From a virus (taxonomy: Duplodnaviria; Caudoviricetes), in IMG/VR virus record IMGVR_UViG_3300032516_000022, positions 1-61,818 of that record: 61,818 nucleotides of DNA, one strand, 5' to 3'. A model generated the notes under the pieces. The model was not told the DNA's origin. It saw only the letters and a list, made by a program, of their open reading frames with translations, and searched no databases. Each line of letters starts with the position of its first letter. Position 1 is the first letter of the stretch. This document shows, piece after piece, positions 2,549 through 61,818 of this stretch. A program made the position numbers and the translations under genes.

Positions 2549-2704
2549 GCAGAGTTCGCGGAGCATTTCGTTCTGCTGTCGCCGTCGGCTATTGCGAATC
2601 TTCCTCGCCATGTCCCTGCACATGTCAGCCGATGCATAGTGTCCTATGACTTGCAATTTGTCTGCCTTACCGATCCAATAGCTTGCGCTTTTCATTGTTG
2701 TCAC
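2507..2704 (-). CDS. Hypothetical protein
   Basis: 65-aa ORF coupled to the next gene by ATGA. Confidence 0.5.
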   Translation of the reverse strand: MTTMKSASYWIGKADKLQVIGHYASADMCRDMARKIRNSRRRQQNEMLRELCGTSAAAARRDMGL

Positions 2705-2707
2705 CTT

Positions 2708-2896
2708 TCATTTCCCTTTTCCCTTGCGAAGTTCATCATTGCAGGAGACACAAACAGAAGCCTTTTCGTGGTGCATTGCATAGCGGCCACATTTTTCACA
2801 AATGTGATAGTCAGAGTTCAGACGCACGCAGTTGCTGCAGACATTATCAATGATATTACTTCCGCAGCGATTGCAAGTTTCTTCATTCGCCTTCAT
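2708..2896 (-). CDS. Small zinc-finger protein (first gene of the early operon)
   Basis: Four CxxC pairs; AAGGA RBS upstream of ATG 2896. Confidence 0.6.
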   Translation of the reverse strand: MKANEETCNRCGSNIIDNVCSNCVRLNSDYHICEKCGRYAMHHEKASVCVSCNDELRKGKGK

Positions 2897-2934
2897 AATA
2901 ACATTCTTTCCTTTTACTTCCCCCTCTGTCGTTC

Positions 2935-3395
2935 GCGGGCTTGGGACCGTCGCGAGCACCATGCTCGTGGCCACATTGGGATCTGCTCTCAATCGTGCAT
3001 CGGGGTCAGGGGCCGGATTTCACTTCCTTGGGTCGATTGTCATGCCTCAGAGGAGCGGCATTCCCGGGCGTTGGGTTCGGTGTGAACTTAATTGCAGCAG
3101 GATCTCCATGCGAGAGGACTTACTCGATCGACTTCGCCAGTTGCCATGCGTCTTCGGATTATCGTAACCACGTGGGTTCCTACCGACGACTTACTCTGCT
3201 GGCTCGGAGCTTGAGGGCACTACCCTCCCGACCGATTGATTGCAGGCTCGGCTGGCGCCAGCGGGTTGTCCCGTCCTTTCAGGCGACCAGCATCAGTGGA
3301 AGTGAGCGCTACTGTGGATTCAATTCCAGCCCCGTGAGGGATACTGGGAGGGGCCGTCGCCCCGTTGCCGAGCTTTGGGTCCTTGGTTCGCCCGC
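2935..3395 (-). ncRNA. Candidate large structured RNA / leader
   Basis: No credible ORF. A closing helix joins the two ends (GCGGGC/GCCCGC plus GGACC/GGUCC), with many internal hairpins and long-range complementary pairs. Confidence 0.55.
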
Positions 3396-3440
3396 CGCCC
3401 GCTCGCTCTCTTGCCTTCCTTTTCTAACTTTCATGACTAC

Positions 3441-3490
3441 AGAATACAGCAACCATGAGTTAAAGTAAATTAAAAAATTAAAAAATCTTT
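3441..3490 (-). promoter_or_regulatory. Sigma70-type early promoter with UP-like AT tract
   Basis: TTTACT (3469-3464), 17 bp, TATTCT (3446-3441), preceded by T-tracts. Predicted start ~3434. Confidence 0.65.
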
Positions 3491-3530
3491 TAGCTTCTGG
3501 AATCTATTGATTTTTAAGCATTTCTAGGGA

Positions 3531-3560
3531 TATGTGTCTGTAATGATTGGCAGATACATA
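3531..3560. promoter_or_regulatory. Inverted repeat between the divergent arms (operator-like)
   Basis: TATGTGTCTG-N10-CAGATACATA, 9/10 complementary. Confidence 0.35.
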
Positions 3561-3585
3561 GGGTTGCTGTACAAAAGCATATCAT

Positions 3586-4275
3586 TTGATAGCTTTCTTC
3601 CTAGTGAGAACGAAGTCCCGCAGTTCAACGGATCCTACTGGTTGTAGCAAGCATGCCTGGTCCCCTAAGCATAGTCGTGTGGCATACGTTGCCATATCCG
3701 AAGGCGGACTTACAGTTGGCGGTCTTGCCAAGCTTTTCGACGTCTCCGAAGTGATGATCAACAAGTGGATGCGGAAGCACCCCCGATTCAAGCGTGCCGT
3801 GATTGAAGGTCGCTATGCTTACGACACCCGCAAGGTCGTTACCTCTCTCTTGAAGAAGGCCCTCGGCTATGACTACGTGGAAGTCTCCAAGGAAGATATC
3901 ACGATCAAGCATGGCAAGGGTGAAGACAAGATCAAGCTGCCCGCAACCAAAATCAGAACTACCACGAAGCACGTTTGTCCCTCAGACACCGCCATTATCT
4001 TCTGGCTGACCAACCGTCAGCCGCAGGAGTGGCAGCATATCCAGAAGATGCTGATGAAGGGTCAAGTCAACCACACCGGTGAATTTGAACACAAGCACGA
4101 GCACGAGTTCGACCTCAAACAAGTCCCTAAGGAGGAACTTGAACACATACGAGACATACTCACCAAGCATGTCCAAGCGCAGGGATCTTCCATCCCTTCG
4201 CGAAGTGGAGGACGCTTTGGCTTACCAGAGCCTTGGCCACTTCACTCGACAGGCTTGGCTCCAAATCGAAACTAG
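3586..4275 (+). CDS. terS: Terminase small subunit
   Basis: HTH (LAKLFDVSEVMINKW) and PSDTAIIFWLTNRQPQEW motif; directly upstream of TerL. Start uncertain. Confidence 0.75.
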   Translation: MIAFFLVRTKSRSSTDPTGCSKHAWSPKHSRVAYVAISEGGLTVGGLAKLFDVSEVMINKWMRKHPRFKRAVIEGRYAYDTRKVVTSLLKKALGYDYVEVSKEDITIKHGKGEDKIKLPATKIRTTTKHVCPSDTAIIFWLTNRQPQEWQHIQKMLMKGQVNHTGEFEHKHEHEFDLKQVPKEELEHIRDILTKHVQAQGSSIPSRSGGRFGLPEPWPLHSTGLAPNRN

Positions 4276-5689
4276 ATCGTATGTCCACGGCTGGCATTTG
4301 GATGCGATCTGCGAACACCTGGAAGCAGTCAGCTCCGGGCAAATTCGCAAGCTGATGATCAATATGCCTCCTCGCCACATGAAGAGTCTTGGTGTCTGTG
4401 TCTTTTGGCCCGCTTGGGACTGGCTTCGCAATCCCCGGGATCAATTCCTCTATGCTTCCTATGCCGAGACTCTTTCCATTCGTGATAGTGTCAAGTGCCG
4501 TCGTCTAATCCAATCCCCTTACTACACCTCCCTGCTGATGGCCTTTCAACCGGATCTGGTCCTAGTCGGGGATCAGAACACCAAGATCCGATTTGAAAAC
4601 AACTTCGGAGGCTACCGCATTGCCACATCAGTAGACGGCTCCAACACAGGAGAAGGCGGAGACAAAATCATAGTGGATGATGCCCATAATCTCAGAGATG
4701 TAGAATCACCTGTCAAGCGTATATCAGTAATCGATTGGTGGTGGCAGGTGATGAGTACTCGGCTCAACGATCCCAAGACTGGCTCCGTTGTCATTATCAT
4801 GCAACGTTCCCACGAAGCTGACCTCTGTGGAGAGATACTGGAAAAGGAAGATGATTGGAATCGCCTCATCCTACCTGCCGAGTACGAGGGATCAAACAAG
4901 TGTTGCACAGTATTAGGCTTCAAAGATCCAAGAAATCAAATCAATGAACCTCTATGGAAGGATAGGTTTGGGTCTAAAGAATTAGGTGAGCTGAAACGCA
5001 AGCTAGGTACCTATGGAGCCGCTGGTCAACTACAGCAAAGACCCTCCCCTCGAGAAGGGGGTATGTTCAAGATCACTGCCATGAAGATGGTTCATAACTT
5101 TGACCGGCACCACATCCTCAATTCCGTACGCTATTGGGACAAGGCGGCTACCGAAGGAACCGGATGTAATACCGCCGGAGTCCTCATGCACCAGATGAAG
5201 CCGGAGACCTATCCCTTTGAGTACCTGGTGGAAGATGTGGTAACCGGACAATGGTCTACAGCTCAGCGGGAAGCTGTTATGAAGCAGACGGCTGAATTGG
5301 ACAGAGGCAGAACCAATTCCATAGTCGGGGGTAAGGTGGTCAAGATATGGCTGGAGCAGGAGCCGGGATCTGGAGGCAAGGATAGTTCCTGGGCCAGCGT
5401 CAAGAACCTCAAAGGCTTTGCCGTATCCATAGACCGGGCTTCCAAGGACAAGGTGGTAAGGGCCGAGCCGTTCAGTGCTCAAGTTGAAATAGGTAACGTA
5501 GGAGTCATGGTTAAGGACTGGACGGACGACTACCTCCAGGAGCTGGAACTGTTCCCCGTCGGTAAGGAGAAGGACAGAGTGGACGCTTCCACGGGTGCCT
5601 TCAATCGCCTCAATGCTCCCGGGGGATTGTCTGGGACATGGGGACGTAAGCACGGCATCAAGGTCAGAGTAAGGAGATTGTTGAAATGA
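4169..5689 (+). CDS. terL: Terminase large subunit
   Basis: Walker A INMPPRHMKS, Walker B IIVDDAH, QLQQRP, nuclease motifs YWDKA and DRVDA. Confidence 0.95.
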   Translation: MSKRRDLPSLREVEDALAYQSLGHFTRQAWLQIETRSYVHGWHLDAICEHLEAVSSGQIRKLMINMPPRHMKSLGVCVFWPAWDWLRNPRDQFLYASYAETLSIRDSVKCRRLIQSPYYTSLLMAFQPDLVLVGDQNTKIRFENNFGGYRIATSVDGSNTGEGGDKIIVDDAHNLRDVESPVKRISVIDWWWQVMSTRLNDPKTGSVVIIMQRSHEADLCGEILEKEDDWNRLILPAEYEGSNKCCTVLGFKDPRNQINEPLWKDRFGSKELGELKRKLGTYGAAGQLQQRPSPREGGMFKITAMKMVHNFDRHHILNSVRYWDKAATEGTGCNTAGVLMHQMKPETYPFEYLVEDVVTGQWSTAQREAVMKQTAELDRGRTNSIVGGKVVKIWLEQEPGSGGKDSSWASVKNLKGFAVSIDRASKDKVVRAEPFSAQVEIGNVGVMVKDWTDDYLQELELFPVGKEKDRVDASTGAFNRLNAPGGLSGTWGRKHGIKVRVRRLLK

Positions 5690-6441
5690 GCAGCGGACTG
5701 AAGAGCTTGATTCATGTTCTGGCTAAAGAAGAGGACGCTGGAGGAGCCTGGCGCACCATCAACGGTACTCCGGTCTTTATCAAGGAAGGCCAGTCCGTTG
5801 CCGATGCTATTGAAAAGCGATTTGATGAATCCCCTAAGAAGGAGTCCAGCAGTCCCAAGGCACCTTCAGTTGATAAAGGGGGTAAGGTGGTCCGATTCAA
5901 GAGTGGGGCGCAGGCAGATAAACTACTTAAGGACTCAGCTTCCCAGTGGAGCGAAGGGGATGGATACTTTGATAATAAGGTGGTCAAGGACTATGCCGGG
6001 ACCTCTGATAGTTTCCTGATCAACAAGTACCTGCGGACCGGGCAGGGGGACAAGTCCCTTAAGGACAAAGCTAATGCCCTAGCCAAGGTGCTTGACAAGA
6101 CCTCTTTCCCCATGGACGCTGAAGTGGTCCGTTCCATAAATCCCAAGACCCCGGAAGAGCGAGCGGCAATCCTGAAGTCTTTTTCAGTTGGTGATGAATT
6201 CAAGGATCCAGCATTCACCTCCACCACGGCCAATGTCAAGTATGCTGATGAGTGGGCTTCCAAGTTTAAGGCAGACCCAATCAAGGTCACGGTGGAGATT
6301 CCCAAAGGGGCCAAGGCTGCATATCTTCCTAAAGAGACGGTCGGGAAGCAGGAATGGGAAGTTTTAATCCAGAGGGGTTCCACTTATCGGGTGAAGAGCG
6401 TGGAAGGTTCTCACGTGACTTTGGAATTGAGGGCAGCATGA
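5686..6441 (+). CDS. ADP-ribosyltransferase (VIP2/C3-like R-S-E family) with N-terminal tag
   Basis: INKYLR, VVRS (R), FTSTT (S), EWEVLIQRG (ExE). The N-terminus carries WRTINGTPVFIKEGQS. Confidence 0.85.
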   Translation: MSSGLKSLIHVLAKEEDAGGAWRTINGTPVFIKEGQSVADAIEKRFDESPKKESSSPKAPSVDKGGKVVRFKSGAQADKLLKDSASQWSEGDGYFDNKVVKDYAGTSDSFLINKYLRTGQGDKSLKDKANALAKVLDKTSFPMDAEVVRSINPKTPEERAAILKSFSVGDEFKDPAFTSTTANVKYADEWASKFKADPIKVTVEIPKGAKAAYLPKETVGKQEWEVLIQRGSTYRVKSVEGSHVTLELRAA

Positions 6442-6686: not shown

Positions 6687-8012
6687 ATGAAACGACCATG
6701 GATCTTGATTCTCATGTTGCTGCCCGGCTGTCTAATGGCCGACATCACTCCCCGGCAGGACTTCACTAGCGACTGCTCCGTCCCCCCGGTCAGCAAGGAC
6801 TTGACTTTCGTACAGGCTTCCAGTCAGGACTTGGGCTGGACGTTCAAGCAAGGCACAGCAGCCAAGGATCTGACCGGAGTCAATTTAGTCCGCTTCTCCT
6901 TTGCCCCTACCAGCAAGGCGTGGGTGTCTGTAGTTACCGGATCTGTGGAGTCCGCTTCCACAGGCAAGGTCAAGGTTAGCTTTACCACGGCTAACCTCAA
7001 CACCAATACGACCAAGACCGGTAAGATGGACTGGCTGCTGGAAGTCTCTGATGGCACCAAGAACCTCGCTTACGCCATTGGCAAGATGACACTCATGGAG
7101 AATCCAGCATCAGGTGTCACCAACAGTTTCATCTTAGTGACCACCGTCGTTGATTGGAGTGGCATTTCATCATACAGTCATACGGCAGACAAGGGTCCGT
7201 ATCGACTAGGCGCAGGAATGACTGGAACGACGAATGTGGATGGCAGTATATCCCTAATATCGTTAGCAGGTGGAGCCACTGGCGAGACGAGTAAAGCCTA
7301 TGTTGATGGACAGGACATAGGCACCAGCAATGGTGTGGTTGCATGGATAGGACTGCAAGGCTATGGTACCGTGTCTGCATCTAGCAATGCTGCCATGGCT
7401 GGCGTGGCGGCATCGTATGTTCCGTTTACTGGCGGGACGCTTGCGGATACGAGCACATCAGAGAGCCGATATTTCGCAGGTTATGGGTCCATCGGTACGG
7501 ACGGCCCAGTGTTGATGTTTGAGAACTGGGATTTAGAGTTGTATCCTGGCTATTTGGATGAGTATGGGAATTATGGTGTGGTTAAGATATATCCATTTGG
7601 ACCAACCCAAACGAATAATCCAATGGTAACAATCGGCTCGCAGTCGACGTATCCTAGTCCGGAGTTTAATGGTCTTTGTATGCGGTCAAAAGAAGTGTTC
7701 GTTTGTGACAAGGACATTTACGAAGGTGGCACGTCGCTGGCGACTAAGTACGCACTGGCCTCAGCGGCAGTCACCAACAACGGCTGCACCATCAACGGAA
7801 GCCCTGTCACCAACGGGGCGGCGATCACTGTCGCCGGAGGCGGCGGCGGTGGCGGCAGCACCTCCAACAGTATCCTGCTCTACGCCGTCGGCGACCACTG
7901 GATCCCAGTCATGCCCAACGAAGCCGCGCCCACCAACGTCCTATATGTCATGTCAATATATGCAGCAACAACCAACACATGGAAAGTGCTGGTACCAGGA
8001 GAATCACTATGA
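6687..8012 (+). CDS. Fibre/adhesin-like protein with N-terminal signal peptide
   Basis: MKRPWILILMLLPGCLMA leader, BppU-like beta-rich N-terminal region, T/N/G-rich body, IYEGGTSLATKY motif. Confidence 0.6.
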   Translation: MKRPWILILMLLPGCLMADITPRQDFTSDCSVPPVSKDLTFVQASSQDLGWTFKQGTAAKDLTGVNLVRFSFAPTSKAWVSVVTGSVESASTGKVKVSFTTANLNTNTTKTGKMDWLLEVSDGTKNLAYAIGKMTLMENPASGVTNSFILVTTVVDWSGISSYSHTADKGPYRLGAGMTGTTNVDGSISLISLAGGATGETSKAYVDGQDIGTSNGVVAWIGLQGYGTVSASSNAAMAGVAASYVPFTGGTLADTSTSESRYFAGYGSIGTDGPVLMFENWDLELYPGYLDEYGNYGVVKIYPFGPTQTNNPMVTIGSQSTYPSPEFNGLCMRSKEVFVCDKDIYEGGTSLATKYALASAAVTNNGCTINGSPVTNGAAITVAGGGGGGGSTSNSILLYAVGDHWIPVMPNEAAPTNVLYVMSIYAATTNTWKVLVPGESL

Positions 8013-9685
8013 AGAAACTCGCGACAATCGTTTGTGTAGTGTCTATGTCCGTCGTGGCGCAGGCCGGACACTTTTCGACCGGCGGCGTAATCGTTGCCGA
8101 TAGCCTCGTCAGTGGAGGCGGCACAGGCGACCTGTCCAAAGCTGTCGCCGATCTCACGTATGCCGGGATCGGAGTCACCAACAACCCCATGACCTATGGG
8201 GTAACTAATGGTCTTGAGAGAGCGGACCATGCGGCGGCGACATATGCGCCAATCAGCGTGACCATCCCGGCGGCTTCCAACGCCGCGGTTGCCGGCGTCG
8301 CCGCCTCCTATATACCCTTAACCAATGGTTCCTCTAAGGTTTTTCTGAACCAGCAGACTATCGCACAGGCCGGAATTATCGGCCATGGCGATACTCCGAC
8401 GGTGGCGCAAGGGGCTTTGTTTGACTTGACCGACGACATGGACATCTACGCCAGACCTGGATATCAGCTTCGGCTGCATTCGGCGTCCGGTTGGAATCCA
8501 CTGATTGTCACCAACGGCTCAACATTGATCCCGCCCGGAGGGACGTTGACAGTGAGTGGTATCATGGCGGCTACTACGTCGATCAGCGAAGGCGGAACCT
8601 CCCTCTCCGCCAAGTACGCGCCGATCGGCGTCACCATCCCAGCCGCATCCAACGCGGCGATGGCCGGAGCAACGGCCGCATTCGCGCCGATCTCCGTCAC
8701 CATTCCCGCAGCGAGCAACGCCGCCATGGCAGGGGTCGCGGCTAAGTACCTGCCGCTAGTTGGTGAAGGACGGCTGGACGGAACGAACTACCTGAGCAAT
8801 CCCACATGGTATGGCGGGGGTGGTTCGGGAAAAGCTTACGGGAAATTCTACGTTGACTCTGCTGGGAGTATGCATCTATATGCGCCGAATTCAGGCATGG
8901 ACCCCAACTACCTTTATTTAGGTGGAGCCTATGGTGACTTTGGAAACGTGTTGGCGATGGACAACTGGGATGCATATTTCAAACGGCAGGTGTTCGTCAC
9001 CAATGATATGTATGTCGGCGGCGTCATTTACGAAGGCGACACATTACTCTCCGCCAAGTACACCACATATCCCGCCGTCACCAACATCGCCGTCGCCGTC
9101 GCCTCGCTCGCGCCCATCAAAATAACAGACGCACGGTTTTATCTCTCCGGCCTCAGCAACTCCGCCCAGTCCGTTCGGGCACGGCTGTCCATCGCGCAGA
9201 ACTCCAGCGGACGGGCAACCGATGTGGTCTACCGAGGAACTAACCTGCTGTTCACTTCCTGCACCAGCACGGTCGTCGGGGTGGCTGGGGAGTTTACGAA
9301 CTGTGTGGCTGATGCCTCCGGCTTTGTCCCATTTGACATGTACACTAAACCCGACGCGACCAACGCAACCTGGCAGACATGCTCAAACGGCACGGGGTCC
9401 GTTGTGTACTGGCTGAATGAGGGCGGAACGTATGGCGATAAGAGTAGCAACATCGTCGGCACAGTCGCCGGCATAACCATTAGCCGCGTCAATCGACTCC
9501 GAGTGCCCGACTATTACGACGCCACGGGCGGGTCAAACATCTACTGCACGCTCCACTTCCTCACGCCCCACACCAACACAATCGGGATCAATATGCAGTA
9601 CTGGTCGCGCACAAACATGACCACGTACACCGGCAGCGTAGCCGTAACCAACTCCGCGAGTTTCCTCATCCCCTACGTGAGGTAG
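8009..9685 (+). CDS. Fibre-like protein with signal peptide and internal repeats
   Basis: MKKLATIVCVVSMSVVAQA leader; API(S/G)VTIPAASNAAxAG three times; EGxTxLSAKY twice. Confidence 0.6.
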   Translation: MKKLATIVCVVSMSVVAQAGHFSTGGVIVADSLVSGGGTGDLSKAVADLTYAGIGVTNNPMTYGVTNGLERADHAAATYAPISVTIPAASNAAVAGVAASYIPLTNGSSKVFLNQQTIAQAGIIGHGDTPTVAQGALFDLTDDMDIYARPGYQLRLHSASGWNPLIVTNGSTLIPPGGTLTVSGIMAATTSISEGGTSLSAKYAPIGVTIPAASNAAMAGATAAFAPISVTIPAASNAAMAGVAAKYLPLVGEGRLDGTNYLSNPTWYGGGGSGKAYGKFYVDSAGSMHLYAPNSGMDPNYLYLGGAYGDFGNVLAMDNWDAYFKRQVFVTNDMYVGGVIYEGDTLLSAKYTTYPAVTNIAVAVASLAPIKITDARFYLSGLSNSAQSVRARLSIAQNSSGRATDVVYRGTNLLFTSCTSTVVGVAGEFTNCVADASGFVPFDMYTKPDATNATWQTCSNGTGSVVYWLNEGGTYGDKSSNIVGTVAGITISRVNRLRVPDYYDATGGSNIYCTLHFLTPHTNTIGINMQYWSRTNMTTYTGSVAVTNSASFLIPYVR

Positions 9686-12099: not shown

Positions 12100-12172
12100 C
12101 CGCCGAGGTGCACGGAGTGTACGACGGAATGGAGGACTGAAATGAAATGGAGTAACAAACAAGGAGGTAAAT

Positions 12173-12538
12173 ATGCCCAATGAAATTACAGTAAGTGGAT
12201 CAGTCCGTATTAGCAAGGGCTCGATGGAGTTCAGCCGTAGAATGAGCTCCACCTTGACCATGGTGGGTGATGCTCTGATGCACAGCGTTCAGTTGATCGG
12301 GGATACTCATGAGCCTTTGGTCATGGGTGATGTCACCGTGCCGGGAGCATTTCTCTTCATCAACTTGAGTACGTTCGACATTCAGATTGGCAAGGACGTC
12401 CTAGGTTCCTTTGTCTCTTCGTTCAAGATCCCTGTTGATGGCTTTGTCATGGGATCCAATCTGGACATTGCCGCTCCCTACGCCAAGTGCTCTGACAGCG
12501 AGGGTGGATATCTCGAGTCCGCAATCAGCCAAGTATAG
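12173..12538 (+). CDS. Hypothetical, probable structural protein
   Basis: Strong AAGGAGGT RBS; beta-rich 121 aa just before the portal. Confidence 0.7.
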   Translation: MPNEITVSGSVRISKGSMEFSRRMSSTLTMVGDALMHSVQLIGDTHEPLVMGDVTVPGAFLFINLSTFDIQIGKDVLGSFVSSFKIPVDGFVMGSNLDIAAPYAKCSDSEGGYLESAISQV

Positions 12539-48756: not shown

Positions 48757-50108
48757 GCTGCCGCCTCTTCTTTCATACTCCACGGTTGATTGGGTTTCGA
48801 GATTTCATATTCCACTTTCAAAGGCACAATGATCCACGGCCATTCGGCTGGTAGTTTCTTGGTGGCTACTTCGTCCACAATCGCTCGGAGGTCTTTTGCC
48901 TGTGCTTCTTCCATATTATCAAAGGCAATGGAGTCATGTATCTGTCCTATAATAAATGGCCCCATTTTGCTTTTCTTCAGAATTCGATTGACTTGAATCA
49001 GGGTCCACAACATACAATGGAAGGCTGGTCCTTGTATCGGAAGATTCAGCACTTGGTTTCTTCGCATAAGACCAGAGCAGGTAAATCCAGTCATTGTGTG
49101 GAAGTATCCCTTTTTCAAGTATTCTCTCCAGAACGTCTCTTTCCACTGGGTGTAAACTTTGAATCGTTTATTCCAGAAGTGCCATTCCACTTTTTCAATG
49201 TGCTTCTGAAAACGACAGAACGGAGTCAAACCTTGTTTCTGTAAATGATCCATCAAAGGGATGTTATCAGCGGTAGTCAACTCTAATAGTCGCACATTGT
49301 CCCATAGATGTGGTGCCACTTCTCTCCAATAAGATCCATAGAACTCAGGAAAGACAAATCCATTTTTGGCACTGTATCGAATGTCCTTGGATACTTGTTT
49401 CATATCCAGTCGATAGCAATCCATGGCCAAGTCCCTGTGCATATCTGTACTTGGGTCTTTGATGTACCGAATCAGAGCCGGGTCTTTATGCTGGCAAGCC
49501 GAAGCACAGACTTCCACTCCTTTGAAGTCTGACTCCATGAAGCATTTTCCCTTTCGAGGAATTAAAGCACCCCGGACAAGTAAGGCAATCTCTTTGTCCC
49601 GCTTGTTCTGATTCTGAAAGTTGATGTGATCTGAAGATGAACGGAAAGATCGAACCAGATGTAAATTGAAAAAGGGATGAAGCAAACCACCCACTTGCTC
49701 CCTCATGATTTCTTCCAAACGGACCTGGGCGTGCTGTAGTCGTTTCATGTCTGATCGTTGATCCAACCAGTCAATATGAAAGTCTTGCAAGGCTTCTTTA
49801 TCCACAGAAGTCTTTCCATGCCGAGTTTCCTTTTTCGACTTTAAGCCCATCTGACCAAAAAGAAACTTCCCCAGCTGATCATCAGAATCAAGATTGAAGG
49901 ACTGACCTTTCCAAGCCTTCCACTTCTTGACATCTGAATCGGTTAGTATCTTTCTCTCCAATTTCTTACAACGAAGCTGTAGATTTTCAATGGTTGTTCT
50001 GCAATACTTTCTGTCTACTCGAATACCCCTATTCTCCATATCGGCAAAAGCAGCCACACCATCATGGAGTAGTTGATAGGCTTCTTTGGTACTAGGCGTG
50101 CATTTCAT
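48753..50108 (-). CDS. Family A DNA polymerase, polymerase domain
   Basis: RSSS..INFQN, motif A DFKGVE, motif B RYSAKNGFVFPEFYG, motif C QIHDS. Confidence 0.92.
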   Translation of the reverse strand: MKCTPSTKEAYQLLHDGVAAFADMENRGIRVDRKYCRTTIENLQLRCKKLERKILTDSDVKKWKAWKGQSFNLDSDDQLGKFLFGQMGLKSKKETRHGKTSVDKEALQDFHIDWLDQRSDMKRLQHAQVRLEEIMREQVGGLLHPFFNLHLVRSFRSSSDHINFQNQNKRDKEIALLVRGALIPRKGKCFMESDFKGVEVCASACQHKDPALIRYIKDPSTDMHRDLAMDCYRLDMKQVSKDIRYSAKNGFVFPEFYGSYWREVAPHLWDNVRLLELTTADNIPLMDHLQKQGLTPFCRFQKHIEKVEWHFWNKRFKVYTQWKETFWREYLKKGYFHTMTGFTCSGLMRRNQVLNLPIQGPAFHCMLWTLIQVNRILKKSKMGPFIIGQIHDSIAFDNMEEAQAKDLRAIVDEVATKKLPAEWPWIIVPLKVEYEISKPNQPWSMKEEAAA

Positions 50109-51294
50109 GTCGTTGATCCCTTGCCGTTAACCATTCCAGAAATGAATCATAACCACAGTACTTCAATAATGAATCTGTACTGACTTGCGATATTCGATTG
50201 AAGGCATTGGCATTCTTGTCCCCTGATTCAATATACGGAGCAACTTGTTGATCATAGTTGCCTAAGCCATATCGAACAAAGGCCTGGAACTTAATGGAGG
50301 TGATACTGGAGCGATTATCAAGGACATGCGCTGCCAGCATTGTATCATGATACCAGTTTCTGACTCTGGTTTGAAAAAAGACTCTTGACCATGTCTCTTC
50401 AAACTTGAAGTTGCTGGCAATCTTTCTGAAATCGGATTGTAAAAAGTTATTCCAAATATCCCGTATCGCCGGACCATAACGAAAAGCCAATGTTCGTTTA
50501 CCATCAGAAATGGACATGCATACTACTCGATGTCCTTTGGCGTGCGGTTTCAGTCCGGTAGTCTCATAATCAAAGGCAACCCGAGTATTGGGTTTGCTCT
50601 CATACATCCATCGTTGCAGAGCCCGGGCTCCTTTAATTGGATTGGGATACTGCTCGACTTCAATTACAAGAGACTTAGGCGCCGGTTCTGTATGTTTTCG
50701 GAATGCTGCTTTCAAGTCTTGAAAGAAAAGGAGATTTGCAGTCCCTCGTCCTTTTTCTTCTCGCATGACAAATGAAGGATGATATGTCGGACAAAGGTAC
50801 GCACCCAATTTAGGACAGGGTATTTGAAAACCTCTCCAAGTATCCACTTCTCCAATGGAGCCTTTCCAGTAAGGGAGTATGACGGACTTCATTGCTGCTG
50901 ATCCTAGCAAAATAATTACTCGGGGATTTACTTGCTTAATGGTTTGAAAAACCCTTGATCGACAGGCATCTATTTCTAAAGCTACAGGTTCTCGATCATC
51001 TGGCGGTCGACAGTTGACAGCGTTTGTTCGTACGCAATCATCAGCAAGATGACAGTCTATTTTATCCAAAGTCTCTCGAACCATCTGTCCGTATCTTCCC
51101 ATGAATGGCTTGCCCGTCTTGTCATCCTGCTCTTCTGGTGCTTGTCCCACAATGAGAATATGAGACCGTCCTTTCCCATACGGCTTCATCATCTGTGTTT
51201 TGCAAGATTCAATCAGCTTGCATGGACATCTCTTTTGAGAGAACTTGGATGTCGTTGTCTGGATTTTCTCGAGACTAAAGAAGCCTTCAGGCAT
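50092..51294 (-). CDS. UDG family-4-like domain plus 3'-5' exonuclease (N-half of the polymerase)
   Basis: VGQAP, PFMG..G, NAVNCRPP, TYHPS; exonuclease motifs DYETTG, HDTML, YCGYD. Confidence 0.88.
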   Translation of the reverse strand: MPEGFFSLEKIQTTTSKFSQKRCPCKLIESCKTQMMKPYGKGRSHILIVGQAPEEQDDKTGKPFMGRYGQMVRETLDKIDCHLADDCVRTNAVNCRPPDDREPVALEIDACRSRVFQTIKQVNPRVIILLGSAAMKSVILPYWKGSIGEVDTWRGFQIPCPKLGAYLCPTYHPSFVMREEKGRGTANLLFFQDLKAAFRKHTEPAPKSLVIEVEQYPNPIKGARALQRWMYESKPNTRVAFDYETTGLKPHAKGHRVVCMSISDGKRTLAFRYGPAIRDIWNNFLQSDFRKIASNFKFEETWSRVFFQTRVRNWYHDTMLAAHVLDNRSSITSIKFQAFVRYGLGNYDQQVAPYIESGDKNANAFNRISQVSTDSLLKYCGYDSFLEWLTARDQRHEMHA

Positions 51295-51304
51295 TGTATC
51301 CCTC

Positions 51305-51405
51305 TTGTAAGCTATCTAGGATTGTTTAGGTAGTCTTGAAAAGCTAATTGAACAGCTTCCCCTTATCTAGGTAGTGCTTCGCACCTACACGATCCTAGAC
51401 GTTTT
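51305..51405 (-). repeat. Dispersed ~95-bp element, copy 6 (diverged)
   Basis: Minus strand AAAACGTCTAGGATCGTGTAG...AGCTTTTCAAG...AATCCTAGA; spacing 59 bp. Confidence 0.65.
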
Positions 51406-52408
51406 CCACTTTCATGGATTTCCAACCCTTTCCAGTCCAATACTTGGACACATCCTTTACATCCCAGTGTTTGAAGTCGCATCTTGAGAATGTTACGTTG
51501 CATCGAGAACATTGGGAGATAGCTGCTCGATTCTTGTTGTGAAGTTTCTGACGAATCAATTGCATTTTCTTTCCGTACCAGAAGCACTTGAATCCATCCA
51601 CTCCGTCTTGAACCGATCCAAACTGGCCAGAAGTCTCCCCCACATTGTCTTGACAGCAGATAAGGTATTTACCTTTGGAATCGACTGAGACATACCTGAA
51701 TGGCTGGTTACAGCGCCGTGCGGGTGCTCTGACTACCGGAGTCAATCCGAACTTTGCAGCCGCTTTCCAATCCAGATGATTGAACCAAGTGCCAAGCAGT
51801 CCTGCACGGAACCTACTTCTGGGCCAGTTTTCTGGCTGCTCTTGAAGTACGATCAACTTCAAATCCGGTCCATGATAAACCCAGGGAGAAGGTGCACAGT
51901 CAGGAGCAGCATAGTATTCATACCATGGATATCCAGATTCCTTTGCCAGTTCTCTGAACTTTTCATTAGGACCGTACATATCCGTGTATACGATATTCGC
52001 TCCTGCCATTAGCAACTGTTTATACGTCACTTTGTTTGTACGAAGCATTGTACCATTGGTTGTGATTTGAATCTGGGACAAGGGGGATAGCTTTCTGGCC
52101 AAGGAAAGAAACTCTGGAAGATTCGGATTGAGCGTGGGCTCCCCACCCAGAACAAGGTCGATTCGACACGTGGGAGAAATCTTGGCAATAATCTTCCAGA
52201 CTTGGCACCAGGTCTTTTCTGTCATGAAGTGGTAGATGCCTTTTTTGTCAAGACGACAAGAGCAGTGCCCACAAGACAGATTGCAACCATGTGTAGGTTC
52301 AATGCACCAGACCCAGGGTGTTGTTGCCCCAAGGGGTTTGATTTTTTCTGGTGTCTTGACTTCAGGAAAGGTGAATGATCCTGGCGGTCGAATAAAGCCA
52401 AATGTCAT
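51395..52408 (-). CDS. Radical SAM enzyme with SPASM/twitch domain
   Basis: CNLSCGHC, GGEPTLNP, ITTNG, CNQPF, CCQD, CSRC. Confidence 0.92.
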   Translation of the reverse strand: MTFGFIRPPGSFTFPEVKTPEKIKPLGATTPWVWCIEPTHGCNLSCGHCSCRLDKKGIYHFMTEKTWCQVWKIIAKISPTCRIDLVLGGEPTLNPNLPEFLSLARKLSPLSQIQITTNGTMLRTNKVTYKQLLMAGANIVYTDMYGPNEKFRELAKESGYPWYEYYAAPDCAPSPWVYHGPDLKLIVLQEQPENWPRSRFRAGLLGTWFNHLDWKAAAKFGLTPVVRAPARRCNQPFRYVSVDSKGKYLICCQDNVGETSGQFGSVQDGVDGFKCFWYGKKMQLIRQKLHNKNRAAISQCSRCNVTFSRCDFKHWDVKDVSKYWTGKGWKSMKVENV

Positions 52409-53334
52409 TCTGCACCTTCTTCAATTGGTGTAACTGGGCACAACTTGTTGGATGAATACTGTGCGTGCTTACCTACATAGACAAGTCGCATACCATATTC
52501 ATTCGTCCCAACGATGGGTGTCACGCCTTCACGAAGTATAGGTTTATTTTTCTTGAACGGAGCATAGTTGACCCTGTGGTGCCAACGACCGTACTTCCAT
52601 ACCATTTCAACAACATCTGGGTGCTGCTTCTGAAGAGATTCAACGAAGGCTTTGCGATAGTCTCCCGTGTTGTAAACATTGTCCGCATTGCCGCCATGAA
52701 AGGATTTCTTTTTCTTATCTGTAGGAGCACCACTCCATGTTGCCATTTTTTGGCCCAAAAAGACTTTGAAAATACATGTCACCCAGCCATCCTTCAAAGC
52801 CCGTATGCATATGTCGGTATCTTCATTGTATCGACCTCTCCATCGATAGGGAAGATCCGTGTTGACCAATATCATGGAATAGATTCTGGTGTTCAAAGAC
52901 AATGCAGGTTGTCCGCCGTCCACTTCCACAGCAAATGCTTTGTTGTGTGGACCGCAAAAGGCAATGTTCGTATACCGATCAGCCCAATCTTCAATGCATC
53001 GAAAGATCGCTGAAGTCTGAACAGGAATCCGTCGATTGTAGTTCATTCGATAGAACACGGAGACATTATCATCCATGACCCAGTGGCGAGCTTGCTTATT
53101 CTTTTTGGCATGCTCCCAGATCCAGTTGCGGGCAGGAATAGAACCTTGTCCCAGATCATGAAATGGAAGAGTTAATACCTCACCAAGACCTAGTTTCTTG
53201 TACTTCTTGACTTCGGTATTTTCAACAACGAAGAAAAACGGACACTTCATTTCCGTTAATCGCAGTGCTGTAAACGGCATGTCTGATCGGCCCTTGCTCA
53301 TGATATAAATCGGATACCTAGTTTTCATCAACAT
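52405..53334 (-). CDS. TET-associated/GREB1-like (TAGT) glycosyltransferase, putative DNA modification
   Basis: YPIYIMSKGR, ARNWIWEHA, HWVMDDN, NTRIYS, WRGRYNEDTD. Confidence 0.8.
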   Translation of the reverse strand: MLMKTRYPIYIMSKGRSDMPFTALRLTEMKCPFFFVVENTEVKKYKKLGLGEVLTLPFHDLGQGSIPARNWIWEHAKKNKQARHWVMDDNVSVFYRMNYNRRIPVQTSAIFRCIEDWADRYTNIAFCGPHNKAFAVEVDGGQPALSLNTRIYSMILVNTDLPYRWRGRYNEDTDICIRALKDGWVTCIFKVFLGQKMATWSGAPTDKKKKSFHGGNADNVYNTGDYRKAFVESLQKQHPDVVEMVWKYGRWHHRVNYAPFKKNKPILREGVTPIVGTNEYGMRLVYVGKHAQYSSNKLCPVTPIEEGAE

Positions 53335-53629
53335 ATCTCCATTCACCTGGATTTGTGAACTTTGGCTGCTTGGGGTACCAGAAGGATTTGCATCTTTCTG
53401 AAATTGGAATATCAAGTTTCTTGGCAAATTTCTGTAGGTCTGCAAGTGTGAAGAAGTTGACCTTGATTTCAAATGCTGGCATGGCATCGCCCATCTGAAA
53501 CTCAGGCATATTCCACCAGTACTCTTTCCAAGATGGGTCGTCCCTGAGAAAGCCTACCGTCTTTTTCTTTTCTTGAACCGGTCTTCCTGCACGGGACAGA
53601 TCAGTTACTGCTTTGTGTTTCATTCTCAT
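53318..53629 (-). CDS. Small accessory protein upstream of the TAGT gene
   Basis: WWNMPEF, VNF....DL..F, SFWYP. Confidence 0.6.
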   Translation of the reverse strand: MRMKHKAVTDLSRAGRPVQEKKKTVGFLRDDPSWKEYWWNMPEFQMGDAMPAFEIKVNFFTLADLQKFAKKLDIPISERCKSFWYPKQPKFTNPGEWRYVDEN

Positions 53630-53630
53630 A

Positions 53631-54623
53631 TTATTTTTCCATGATGATGGAGAGCATCATCTTGATGTTGTTTGATGCAAGCAACAGACCATTCTTTATC
53701 AATTGAGCTATGTACGAATTCATAAGCAACTCTGCAGCTGCTTTAGGAACAACAGTGAATGTCATGGATGGTATGCCAGAGGACTCTGTTCTCTCTGCGA
53801 ACTTGGCAAAGTCTCCCTTGGCCCTTACAGTCAGCACATCATTGTCCACCATCACTGTCGCTGTTTCTTTGCAGATGGATGCTGCTCGCTCGAAGATATG
53901 TCCCAGGTTTTTCGGAAGTTGAATCTTGTCCCCCTTACCATTGAAGAAGGAGCATATGTTTGGATATTCAAGATCGGACAACCGACAGGACGCTGTTAAG
54001 GTTTTGTTCCGAAAATGAATCCAGTCAGATTCAGTATCACAGGCAATTTCCAGAGGATCGATACCGCTGATGATTTGTGCCGTCTGAGCCAGAAGAAGAA
54101 ACTTGACCTTCTTAGAAAGACCAGACTGAATTTGAACAGCTTTGATATTGTCGCAACCAAACAAGAAGCCATCATTCCCGTACACGCAAGAGAATCCTTG
54201 GTTGAAGGTATTCCTTGTGCAGAAACTGGCAGCCATGTTGAGAGCTGCTCCAAAACCAGGATCAAGTTTCTGCCAAGTCTTGGCATTGCTCGTGCTGACA
54301 ATATCATCAATCGGCATCTTCCATGCATCTGTCACAATCTGCAACTGTCCATTCTTAATCAAGACACGGCAGCAATTCTCCTTGGAAAAATCCAATGTCA
54401 CTTCTTTGTTCTTTGCTGCTTTTAAGAAGTTAAGCAAAGCACTGGCGGGAATAGCCGTATTGTCTGGGACTTTGAAAGGGGCTTTGGACGAAAAGGCGAT
54501 CGTACCATTGAATGCCCACATCTTCCCATCTTTGAAGCCAATACGATCAGCCTGCAATGCTTCCTTTTCAGAAGTAATCAAAAGAACATGTGCGATCAGT
54601 TCAAGAAGTTCACTGGCTTTCAT
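53631..54623 (-). CDS. Sliding clamp (DnaN-like)
   Basis: 330 aa; AFNG, GCDN and EYPN match beta-clamp repeat patterns; a clamp loader is nearby. Confidence 0.65.
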   Translation of the reverse strand: MKASELLELIAHVLLITSEKEALQADRIGFKDGKMWAFNGTIAFSSKAPFKVPDNTAIPASALLNFLKAAKNKEVTLDFSKENCCRVLIKNGQLQIVTDAWKMPIDDIVSTSNAKTWQKLDPGFGAALNMAASFCTRNTFNQGFSCVYGNDGFLFGCDNIKAVQIQSGLSKKVKFLLLAQTAQIISGIDPLEIACDTESDWIHFRNKTLTASCRLSDLEYPNICSFFNGKGDKIQLPKNLGHIFERAASICKETATVMVDNDVLTVRAKGDFAKFAERTESSGIPSMTFTVVPKAAAELLMNSYIAQLIKNGLLLASNNIKMMLSIIMEK

Positions 54624-54709: not shown

Positions 54710-55558
54710 TTAACCGAGATGCAGCTTGTTCTTGATAAAGCGGATGGCTGCGGCATCGTTGTGCTTGAGATTCGGGAACTTCTTCATCGTGATCTTGGCC
54801 ATCTTCTCAATGGAGAGGTCTTTCGTCTCCTTGTTCTTGAAAAGATCCCTGACAACAGAAGTCATGCTTTCCTTTCGGACCCCTGACCCCTTCTTCGTCT
54901 TGATCTTCTCAGTCTTCTCGATCTTCTTCTCGACTTTGACTTCCTTCTTGTTCGTCTTCTTCATAGGTTTGTCCTCGTCGTCCTTATCGGACTCTTCTTC
55001 CTCTTCCTCTTCCTCTTCCTCTTCCTCTTCGTCCTTCTTGCTGACCTTCTTCACTGACTTCTTAGACTTGGCAGGGGGATCATCCTCATCGGACTCCTCT
55101 TCCTCTGTCTCCTCTTCCTCTTCCGACTCCTCCTCTTCCTCTGTCTCCTCTTCCGGCTCATCCTCTTCTTCAGTCTCTTCCTCGTCGTCGTCCTTCTTGC
55201 TGGCCTTCTTCGAGGGCTTGTCGTCATCCTCCTCAGCATCGTCTTCATCAGCTTCACTGCCGTCATCATCCTTATCGGATGGATCGGCATCGTCAGCGTC
55301 GTCGTCCTCCTTGGACAGACTCTCAATGAAGTCCCACGTGACTTCCTTGAGATTGCTGTCGTTGTCGGTCTCAACCTCGCGTGTCTTGAGCTCCTTGGGC
55401 TTCAATTCGCCCACGGCTTCCTGAATGGCGTTCTCGAGTTCCTGCCCCTCGAGCTCCACATCGATCTCGGGGTCTTCCAATCCCAGAACCTTGTTCAGGT
55501 CCTTGGCAACGAGCACCAGCAGCTTCTGACGTTTCGGATCTGCTTTTTGCTTGGCCAT
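54710..55558 (-). CDS. Highly acidic low-complexity protein with basic C-terminal domain
   Basis: GGAGG RBS; D/E tracts over ~110 aa; K-rich end. Confidence 0.8.
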   Translation of the reverse strand: MAKQKADPKRQKLLVLVAKDLNKVLGLEDPEIDVELEGQELENAIQEAVGELKPKELKTREVETDNDSNLKEVTWDFIESLSKEDDDADDADPSDKDDDGSEADEDDAEEDDDKPSKKASKKDDDEEETEEEDEPEEETEEEEESEEEEETEEEESDEDDPPAKSKKSVKKVSKKDEEEEEEEEEEEEESDKDDEDKPMKKTNKKEVKVEKKIEKTEKIKTKKGSGVRKESMTSVVRDLFKNKETKDLSIEKMAKITMKKFPNLKHNDAAAIRFIKNKLHLG

Positions 55559-61608: not shown

Positions 61609-61818
61609 TGGTATTCGTCCTTTCCATTAACAAAGCAATGGGTGCCGCTCTTCCACTTGATAGTCGCGTTGCCGTAGGCTTCGATCACAGCTTCAGCCCA
61701 CAGCTTGTCACCCTCGGCCCTCAGCTTGCTGCCCTCGGCCCACAGCTTGCTGCCCTCGGCATACAGCTTGTCACCCTCGGCATACAGCTTGTCACCCTCG
61801 GCCCTCAGCTTGCTGCCC
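61605..61818 (-). CDS. Heptad-repeat protein, 3' part
   Basis: ...KLRAEGDKLWAEAVIEAYGNATIKWKSGTHCFVNGKDEYQ-stop. Confidence 0.75.
   Translation of the reverse strand, partial: GSKLRAEGDKLYAEGDKLYAEGSKLWAEGSKLRAEGDKLWAEAVIEAYGNATIKWKSGTHCFVNGKDEYQ
61701..61818. repeat. 21-bp tandem repeat (right end; matches 24-141)
   Basis: Direct comparison. Confidence 0.95.

Follow-up and report, generated by a model that had tools for sequence, protein, structure and literature searches.

The region at the head of the early arm

The DNA stretch analysed here (hereafter the window) is the complete IMG/VR virus record IMGVR_UViG_3300032516_000022, of 61,818 bases, which is classed as linear with a completeness estimate of 84%. 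Our subject is the region at positions 2897-3440, which lies between two divergent sets of genes (Table 1): the plus-strand genes led by terS, and a minus-strand early and replication arm that begins at this noncoding region, a location proposed in a preliminary description made from the sequence alone and in agreement with the gene order. We consider it probable that the region specifies a multi-hairpin noncoding RNA at the head of the early transcript, directly followed by a twister ribozyme that would release an RNA of 457 nucleotides (nt) from the early mRNA.

Table 1. Features of the region and of the genes on either side (window coordinates)
Feature	Position	Strand	Remarks
Plus-strand genes	from about 3600 on	+	terS (phrog_309), terL, portal, further head and tail genes
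terS, small terminase subunit	3586-4275	+	phrog_309, E 1.1e-22; divergent from the early arm
Putative early promoter	3441-3469	-	-35 TTTACT (3469-3464), 17-nt spacer, TG, then -10 TATTCT (3446-3441)
Predicted noncoding RNA, 457 nt	2978-3434	-	From putative start to predicted twister cut; no credible open reading frame; G+C 0.59; no Rfam match
Domain I, junction with three hairpins	3304-3408	-	Closed by GAGCG/CGCUC (invariant)
Domain I, first hairpin	3401-3397/3373-3369	-	1 compensatory pair and 1 G-U/A-U change
Domain I, second hairpin	3363-3350	-	3 compensatory pairs
Domain I, third hairpin	3347-3326	-	Invariant versus L056
Domain II, two-tier hairpin	3251-3291	-	Outer stem 3291-3286/3256-3251, inner stem 3273-3270/3265-3262
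Domain IIIa, three-tier hairpin	3136-3203	-	Closed by GCCAG/CUGGC; 3 compensatory pairs versus L056
Domain IIIb, predicted multi-branch element	3032-3132	-	Closed by GUCGAU/AUCGAC; three hairpins and the second GAGUAAGUC; prediction only
Type-P1 twister self-cleaving ribozyme, candidate	2918-2982	-	RF03160, 42.4 bits; full model positions 1-68 matched
First open reading frame of the early arm, 62-aa zinc-ribbon protein	2708-2896	-	PF12773 DZR, E 6.1e-5, under the Pfam cut-off

The region carries no credible gene, as had been noted before, and it is non-coding. Its three minus-strand frames are interrupted by 8, 6 and 8 stops. That it encodes a protein is hardly credible, the two candidates being a plus-strand open reading frame (ORF) of 175 amino acids (aa) at 2941-3468 and a 41-codon minus-strand ORF that opens at the putative transcription start, 3434. 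In favour of the former, the plus-strand frame is open across the entire region, which at this composition is estimated to occur by chance in less than 1% of cases; against it, it matches nothing in Pfam or PHROG, its start falls within the twister, 45 nt from a divergent gene, and frame changes shorten it to 113 aa in L056, the only close relative of this phage found (see below). The 41-codon ORF has 4 synonymous and 11 non-synonymous codon changes between the window and L056, and its substitutions are spread evenly over codon positions 1, 2 and 3 (5, 7 and 8).

The G+C content of the region is 0.59 compared with 0.50 for the window, so that it was rightly called G+C-rich, and it adjoins a trough of 33% G+C between the divergent arms. 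The putative promoter had been described as a good sigma70 promoter, which was too generous; by eye it matches 8 of the 12 consensus positions, and a promoter scan with a threshold of 9/12 did not list it for the minus strand. The promoter is identical in L056, and transcription would start at about 3434. Neither the Rfam covariance models, run on positions 2700-3700 and on the whole window, nor ARAGORN found an RNase P RNA, tmRNA, tRNA or group I or II intron, in line with the earlier statement that the hallmarks of RNase P, tmRNA and introns are missing. A search within the phage for an antisense target or a second copy turned up nothing as long as 14 nt, the best being 13-mers (E 0.41).

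A twister-like ribozyme

A permissive Rfam scan of positions 2700-3700 (E up to 10) and a scan of the whole window (E up to 1) returned the same sole match, the type-P1 twister RF03160, with an E-value of 9.2e-8 in the 1 kb and of 5.7e-6 over the window. The preliminary description had proposed a structured noncoding RNA of about 460 nt; its noncoding nature, the partial conservation of its structure and the lack of an Rfam family stand, save for the last 65 nt, where the twister at the 3' end had been missed, and we therefore redefine the unit as a 457-nt RNA plus a ribozyme. From our reading of the alignment, the conserved twister core appears to be present in full, that is, the AA past the cut, the GCC past P2, the P4 loop GUCCCAAGCC and the GAGGG before the 3' strand of P1, and the loop, the GCC and the GAGGG are also the segments that would supply the pseudoknot-forming bases. 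Standard pairs occupy three of the four positions in P1, three of four in P2 and two of three in P4, and the extra hairpin is intact. The twister fold is reported to depend on two pseudoknots, T1 and T2, which join loop L4 with L1 and L2; the same source indicates that the P1 stem is not needed for cleavage and that rates may come near 1000 per minute (PMC6154101). In the window, possible pseudoknot pairings can be read between CCC 2945-2943 and GGG 2924-2922 and between GC 2940-2939 and GC 2971-2970, and the cut is predicted between C2978 and A2977.

The twister departs from the consensus in having C for U at model position 5 and a GAAC linker for UAAA. We compared it with the phage twisters of IMG/VR that have the exact core (107 stretches, 89 of them distinct). 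Immediately before the cut, 61 of the distinct sequences have U, 7 have C, 1 has G and 20 are unresolved, and AAC replaces UAAA in the linker of 16 of the 89. By this comparison the departures are natural variants that also occur in other phage twisters, and the ribozyme looks to us like a sub-threshold but convincing relative of the type-P1 twisters.

No Rfam match to a second self-cleaving ribozyme (hammerhead, pistol, hatchet, twister-sister or HDV-like) was found on the 5' side; HDV-like folds are poorly detected by covariance models, and no descriptor search was made for them. The words CUGAUG...GAAA, present at 3296-3278, are not retained in L056. Separately, contigs of the sequencing runs X3 and X5 with unrelated flanks match just the 37 twister bases at 2941-2977, with 6 differences, from which it appears that another organism of the same sediments has a similar twister.

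Paired elements of the RNA

A search for the large terminase subunit (TerL) in metagenome contigs gave 79 loci, of which only L056 carries the region, at 89% identity; its TerL is 99% identical to that of the window. Divergence between the two is mosaic, with 316 differences in the first 8.5 kb clustered in a few patches. One of these, at 3119-3429, comprises 56 substitutions and 4 indel columns (about 19%), all within alignment columns 12-324 and entirely inside the predicted RNA; no difference was seen in the promoter region, in the 3' third of the RNA, in the twister or in the genes as far as about 2300. Variation was also seen in the matching sequencing runs (five, all sediment metagenomes, none listed as RNA): contigs of run X3 independently show the same 11 differences as L056 at 3119-3209, and a 264-nt contig piece from run X4, covering 2939-3202, differs from the window at 34 positions and would belong to a variant 87% identical. 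L056 departs from the window by about 20% in two more patches, at 6900-7300 and 8400-8600, inside the ORFs 6687-8012 and 7979-9685, which have no family match; patches of this kind are typical of recombination in host-interaction genes.

The diverged patch allowed pairing to be compared between the two phages. In a two-sequence consensus fold of 133 predicted pairs, 12 pairs are changed on both sides and still paired, 2 are changed on one side and still paired, and none is broken; the 12 compensatory pairs are spread over six local hairpins and account for 24 of the 56 substitutions. For a non-circular test, pairs were drawn from the window sequence alone: 9 of these are compensatory; 2000 permutations averaged 1.2, went no higher than 7 and so never reached the observed count. 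None of 500 shuffles reached the observed count either, and sliding the partners by 1-3 columns left 0-3 compensatory pairs. Because 12 pairs compensate, none breaks and no permutation equals the observation, part of the RNA is under selection for structure, namely for base pairing in six hairpins.

The compensatory changes fall within the domains listed in Table 1. In Domain II, three are in the outer and two in the inner stem, together with one one-sided change. The tiers of Domain IIIa are 3188-3185/3152-3149 (two compensatory pairs), 3180-3178/3158-3156 and 3177-3175/3169-3167 (one compensatory pair), surrounded by the conserved unpaired segments GAGUAAGUC, GUA, UACGAUAA and CGAA. Domain IIIb is identical in L056 except at position 3119. 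Inside the diverged patch, a 27-nt unpaired run (3351-3325) and UACGAUAA are conserved.

The complementary segments and local stems listed in the preliminary description are all found where it had placed them; the five pairings are fully complementary (6/6, 5/5, 8/8, 6/6 and 6/6), and GAGUAAGUC occurs exactly twice, at 3196 and 3125. Several of these elements acquire another meaning in the light of the twister and of L056. The ends, proposed to pair through 3395-3390/2940-2935, are complementary, but this pairing competes with the twister for core bases and loses two of its six pairs in L056, where it is thus not retained; the second closing pairing, 3382-3378/2948-2944, also uses core bases. 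Compensation supports the local stems 3350-3363 (3 pairs) and 3251-3291 (5 pairs), and the stem at 2953-2967 turns out to be a hairpin of the twister; no difference between the window and L056 touches those at 3326-3347, 3213-3227 and 3042-3061, and the remaining long-range pairs fall in columns that are invariant between the two.

Related loci

We looked for the RNA beyond L056 by several routes. No homologue was found with blastn against 50,697 phage records, with blastn and nhmmer against 54 TerL-related viral loci, or in three exact-word scans of viral contigs, and the sequence upstream of the 107 IMG/VR twisters has no similarity to the RNA. The RF03160 model gave no match in 50 of the 54 TerL-related records, which is weak evidence, for the same search found nothing in any of 14 control genomes. 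A two-anchor pattern had one match in GTDB, in a metagenome-assembled genome of Acidobacteriaceae; it showed no extended similarity, about 4-5 chance matches were estimated, and we took it for chance. A pattern of the hairpin module occurred in six stretches of viral contigs, one of which belongs to the L002 contig. The best of the remaining five, L247, falls within an ORF of 219 aa among tightly packed genes, and we likewise put it down to chance. Of two covariance models, R1 (Domain I) returned nothing better than E 0.049 in the first 200 of 241 loci, and R2 (Domains II-IIIa) was run on the same 200; its matches on L171 were rejected as an artefact of a tandem repeat.

One R2 match is of interest; it lies at 1080-1019 (minus) in the leader of L002/L058, scoring 16.1 bits with a rough E-value of 0.018 in 863 kb, and the Domain IIIa module can be placed there at 1084-1021. 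L002 is among the nearest relatives after L056, with a TerL 53% identical, and the match sits in the syntenic place: its leader, some 700 nt long, runs on the strand opposite to terS, from which the match is about 700 nt upstream. Unpaired segments kept in the module are GAGUAAG(Y)C, GUA, CUACGAUAA, CCGAA and GCA, and, as we read the alignment, its stem changes compensate (U-A to A-U, C-G to U-A, A-U to U-A and A-U to G-C); its tip is longer by one further helix. We regard homology of this hairpin module as probable. At the end of the L002 leader, just before the first ORF and in the place of the ribozyme, stands a terminator-like hairpin of 12 pairs with a U run, and no ribozyme was found in that leader. 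This arrangement suggests two interchangeable ways of ending the same kind of RNA.

Other ribozymes were seen among the TerL relatives. In L059 (TerL identity 50%), two type-II hammerheads that pass the Rfam cut-off lie at 1515-1587 and 3070-3135 (minus), in the arm divergent from terS, one of them directly past the stop codon of the first small ORF; eleven further TerL relatives had no ribozyme. In another TerL-related viral locus, L012, a group II intron was recognized at 12147-12317 on the minus strand (D1-D4-3 model, 124 bits).

Comparison with known RNA elements

The window twister resembles the type-P1 twisters in its full-length model match, with the conserved loop and the putative pseudoknot-forming bases, and in being carried by a phage, as are the 107 IMG/VR stretches of the same core. 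It differs from them in its score (42.4 bits compared with a cut-off of 67.2), in the C rather than U before the cut, in its GAAC linker, and also in its surroundings, for it follows a long noncoding stretch whereas most IMG/VR twisters follow a gene: by a rough measure, 9 of the 92 examined have fewer than 70 open codons in the 450 nt upstream.

A comparable placement is described for the haloviruses HF1 and HF2, lytic viruses in which a hammerhead lies upstream of the first ORF of an early polycistronic transcript and the mapped 5' end is at most 3 nt from the cleavage site (PMC3088659). As predicted for the window, a self-cleaving ribozyme precedes the first early ORF, and the mature 5' end is at the cut; the ribozyme is of another class, and the sections of that source drawn on here describe no large conserved structured RNA upstream of the hammerhead. 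Among the TerL relatives, L059 offers a parallel: its self-cleaving ribozymes are encoded on the other strand from terS, close to where the divergent arm begins, and it has an ORF-poor, G+C-rich leader of about 550 nt past an A+T-rich promoter-like gap. There the ribozymes are hammerheads, not twisters, and are placed after the first and later ORFs. The L059 leader shows no similarity to the window RNA (score 25.5 compared with a shuffle mean of 26.5), and both covariance models found nothing in it.

Among large RNAs, ROOL and GOLLD are ornate molecules described as frequent in phages and prophages (PMC5737381; bioRxiv 10.1101/2024.12.08.627333). The suggestion that the window RNA is in their spirit is sound as to kind, since it too would be a large, G+C-rich, multi-hairpin noncoding RNA of a phage; it is smaller (457 nt), its 3' end is predicted to be made by a ribozyme, it is found in one phage lineage, and neither model matches it. 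In fact, none of the large Rfam RNAs (ROOL, GOLLD, OLE, raiA, HEARO and others) gave a match in the two scans described above, and by these searches the RNA belongs to no described large-RNA family.

The RNA could instead be a leader acting in cis on transcription of the early arm, in the manner of put or another processive antiterminator, or of an attenuator, and not a free molecule; this we hold to be unlikely, and it keeps some weight mainly through the terminator-like hairpin of L002. The put element of phage HK022 is a two-stem RNA of about 70 nt that acts tethered to the polymerase, and the window RNA resembles it as an RNA element that opens a long phage early operon. The position immediately past the promoter suits such a role. 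In L002, the matching leader ends in its terminator-like hairpin directly before the first ORF, so that the downstream genes would need read-through, and within the early arm of the window at least one terminator-like site is strong, that at 54684-54649 (minus; a stem of 14 pairs, then TTTTGCTT, in the gap between the ORFs 54710-55558 and 53631-54623). Taken over the arm, such sites are not in excess of shuffles (21 compared with 18.8, 7 with 3.0 and 2 with 4.7). No Rfam regulatory family matches, the RNA is far longer than put, and a fast ribozyme between leader and genes would sever the tether seconds after transcription. The put-like antiterminator entertained in the preliminary description is thus less likely, given that the leader would be cut free of the transcript by the ribozyme.

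Organization of the genome

A tandem repeat is present at both ends of the record (1-230 and 61690-61818; in L056, 1-1106), and its plus-frame translation consists of PSALSLS-like repeat units. Because the near-identical contig L056 joins the window end to the window start across this repeat, the record was probably broken there in assembly and the genome is probably circular or circularly permuted. On the plus strand, relatives of terS align in tblastn from about residue 33. Directly past terL, the ORF 5686-6441 has an ADP-ribosyltransferase exoenzyme-type domain (PF03496, E 1.2e-17) and also matches a PHROG annotated as head maturation protease.

In the early arm, the zinc-ribbon ORF and other small proteins come first, followed by a sigma-70-like factor (212-739), after which the arm wraps round the record to a SNF2 helicase, primase-like and DnaB-like proteins, a TET-associated glycosyltransferase, a radical-SAM protein, a UDG/exonuclease protein, DNA polymerase A, a clamp-loader-like ATPase, a RecA-like protein and a 5'-3' exonuclease. 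Among the small proteins, a 142-aa ORF (2082-2510, minus) is an internal duplication of two near-identical copies of about 70 aa, each beginning MIPQQTISQRRINEVFAELADAKRMYENISKDP, and both DNA copies cross-match in L056 too. A possible DNA-modification cluster adjoins DNA polymerase A at 50092-53487 (minus), with the TET-associated glycosyltransferase (PF20691, E 2e-38), a radical-SAM/SPASM protein and a uracil-DNA-glycosylase-superfamily domain fused to a 3'-5' exonuclease. The terminator-like site mentioned above is the strongest of the arm.

Discussion

The comparisons made here show twister homology, the absence of coding capacity and selection on pairing in six hairpins; the transcription start, self-cleavage and an independent action of the released RNA are inferred. 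In the mechanism that we propose, the leftward early promoter region would drive a transcript whose first 457 nt (3434-2978, minus) fold into the hairpins. Once the polymerase had moved past 2918, the twister would fold and cut at the predicted site. The structured RNA would come away as an RNA of its own, ending in a 2',3'-cyclic phosphate, and the early polycistronic mRNA would be left with a 5'-hydroxyl and a compact ribozyme fold, 21 nt ahead of its first start codon, that of the zinc-ribbon ORF. The trimmed message would encode the zinc-ribbon and other small proteins, the sigma-like factor and then the replication genes.

A number of observations weigh against this interpretation. Transcription and cleavage are predictions from sequence. 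The twister scores 25 bits short of the curated Rfam cut-off and is therefore no automatic member of RF03160 by the Rfam rule; each of P1, P2 and P4 contains one non-standard pair, and, the element being identical in the window and L056, no covariation can be demonstrated for it. The region does not fold better than shuffles, an outcome that the preliminary description had named as a refutation: over 500 nt, the z-score of the minimum free energy (MFE) is +0.87 for the minus strand and +0.73 for the plus, and 81 of 100 shuffles fold as well. By domain, in the order of Table 1, the z-scores are -0.90, -2.78, -0.95 and -0.33, Domain II being the sole segment that folds better than shuffles (2 of 200 shuffles). 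The twister itself also fails this test (z +0.31), so that folding energy is uninformative in this composition. In the MFE fold of the window alone, 13 pairs, mostly long-range, break in L056, and the overall architecture is therefore not settled by that fold. All supported helices are local; two sequences supply the covariation, a third adding a single short module, and of the 457 nt some 320 either do not vary or lack support. By sequence alone the L002 match lacks significance, its score being reached by 35 of 500 shuffles, and its leader is overlapped by an ORF of 96 aa whose standing is doubtful. The RNA family is seen in this phage lineage only and, in part, in L002. Finally, the compensatory changes are strand-symmetric, the plus strand giving 13 pairs.

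This symmetry bears on the possibility that the inverted repeats are kept as DNA, in a packaging site, a replication origin or protein-binding hairpins beside terS. The compensatory changes fit either strand, or DNA cruciforms, equally well, and the region does adjoin terS. Since covariation does not distinguish the strands, we assigned the strand from the twister, the gene order and the G-U pairs: the minus-sense ribozyme marks the region as transcribed in that sense, and several helices use minus-sense G-U pairs (12 G-U cells) that would be A-C mismatches on the other strand. An A+T-rich promoter-like gap also stands between the region and terS, and we strongly doubt a DNA-level element.

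It is improbable, in our judgement, that the twister alone is functional, trimming the mRNA, and that the 450 nt ahead of it are spacer or sequence in decay, the compensation being a by-product of recombination between related G+C-rich sequences. The mosaic divergence from L056 is what recombination predicts, the folding z-scores of the region are not significant, and the searches found no homologues beyond the lineage. Recombination leaves unexplained, though, that 24 of the 56 substitutions fall in 12 pairs that remain paired and that no predicted pair is broken, as well as the conservation of the unpaired run 3351-3325 and of UACGAUAA within the diverged patch and the retention of the hairpin module in L002.

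We prefer to read the released RNA as an immediate-early, trans-acting molecule aimed at the host or at the transcription machinery. The piece that would be cut off is long, its structure is conserved and in a relative it apparently ends in a terminator, which argues for a free-standing RNA over a discarded spacer. It is conceivable, if doubtful, that the RNA is the first known representative of a hitherto undescribed class of large phage RNAs, each the earliest product of the infection, freed by a built-in ribozyme or, in relatives, by a terminator, and acting in trans on the host, for example as a decoy or inhibitor of its defence, transcription or translation machinery. If such a class exists, the confinement of the 19%-diverged recombination patch to the RNA (3119-3429) would reflect an arms race. 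The feature noted earlier is real and more specific than had been supposed; as it stands, a twister-terminated structured early RNA is interesting but unproven, the covariation being significant but narrow and drawn from two and a half sequences.

mRNA processing has been proposed as a role for bacterial twisters and other ribozymes, and the biological role of the twisters of bacteria and phages is described as still open (PMC6765202). The mechanism outlined above agrees with that proposal and with the halovirus hammerhead. This locus would be a clean place for tests: here a twister apparently fixes the 3' boundary of a conserved structured RNA together with the 5' boundary of an early phage message. 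Ribozymes already serve as insulators in synthetic biology, in the form of the engineered RiboJ part. If the released RNA acts independently, it would add one more large noncoding RNA to the few known from phages, and the ribozyme would be a natural "insulator" between an RNA gene and an operon.

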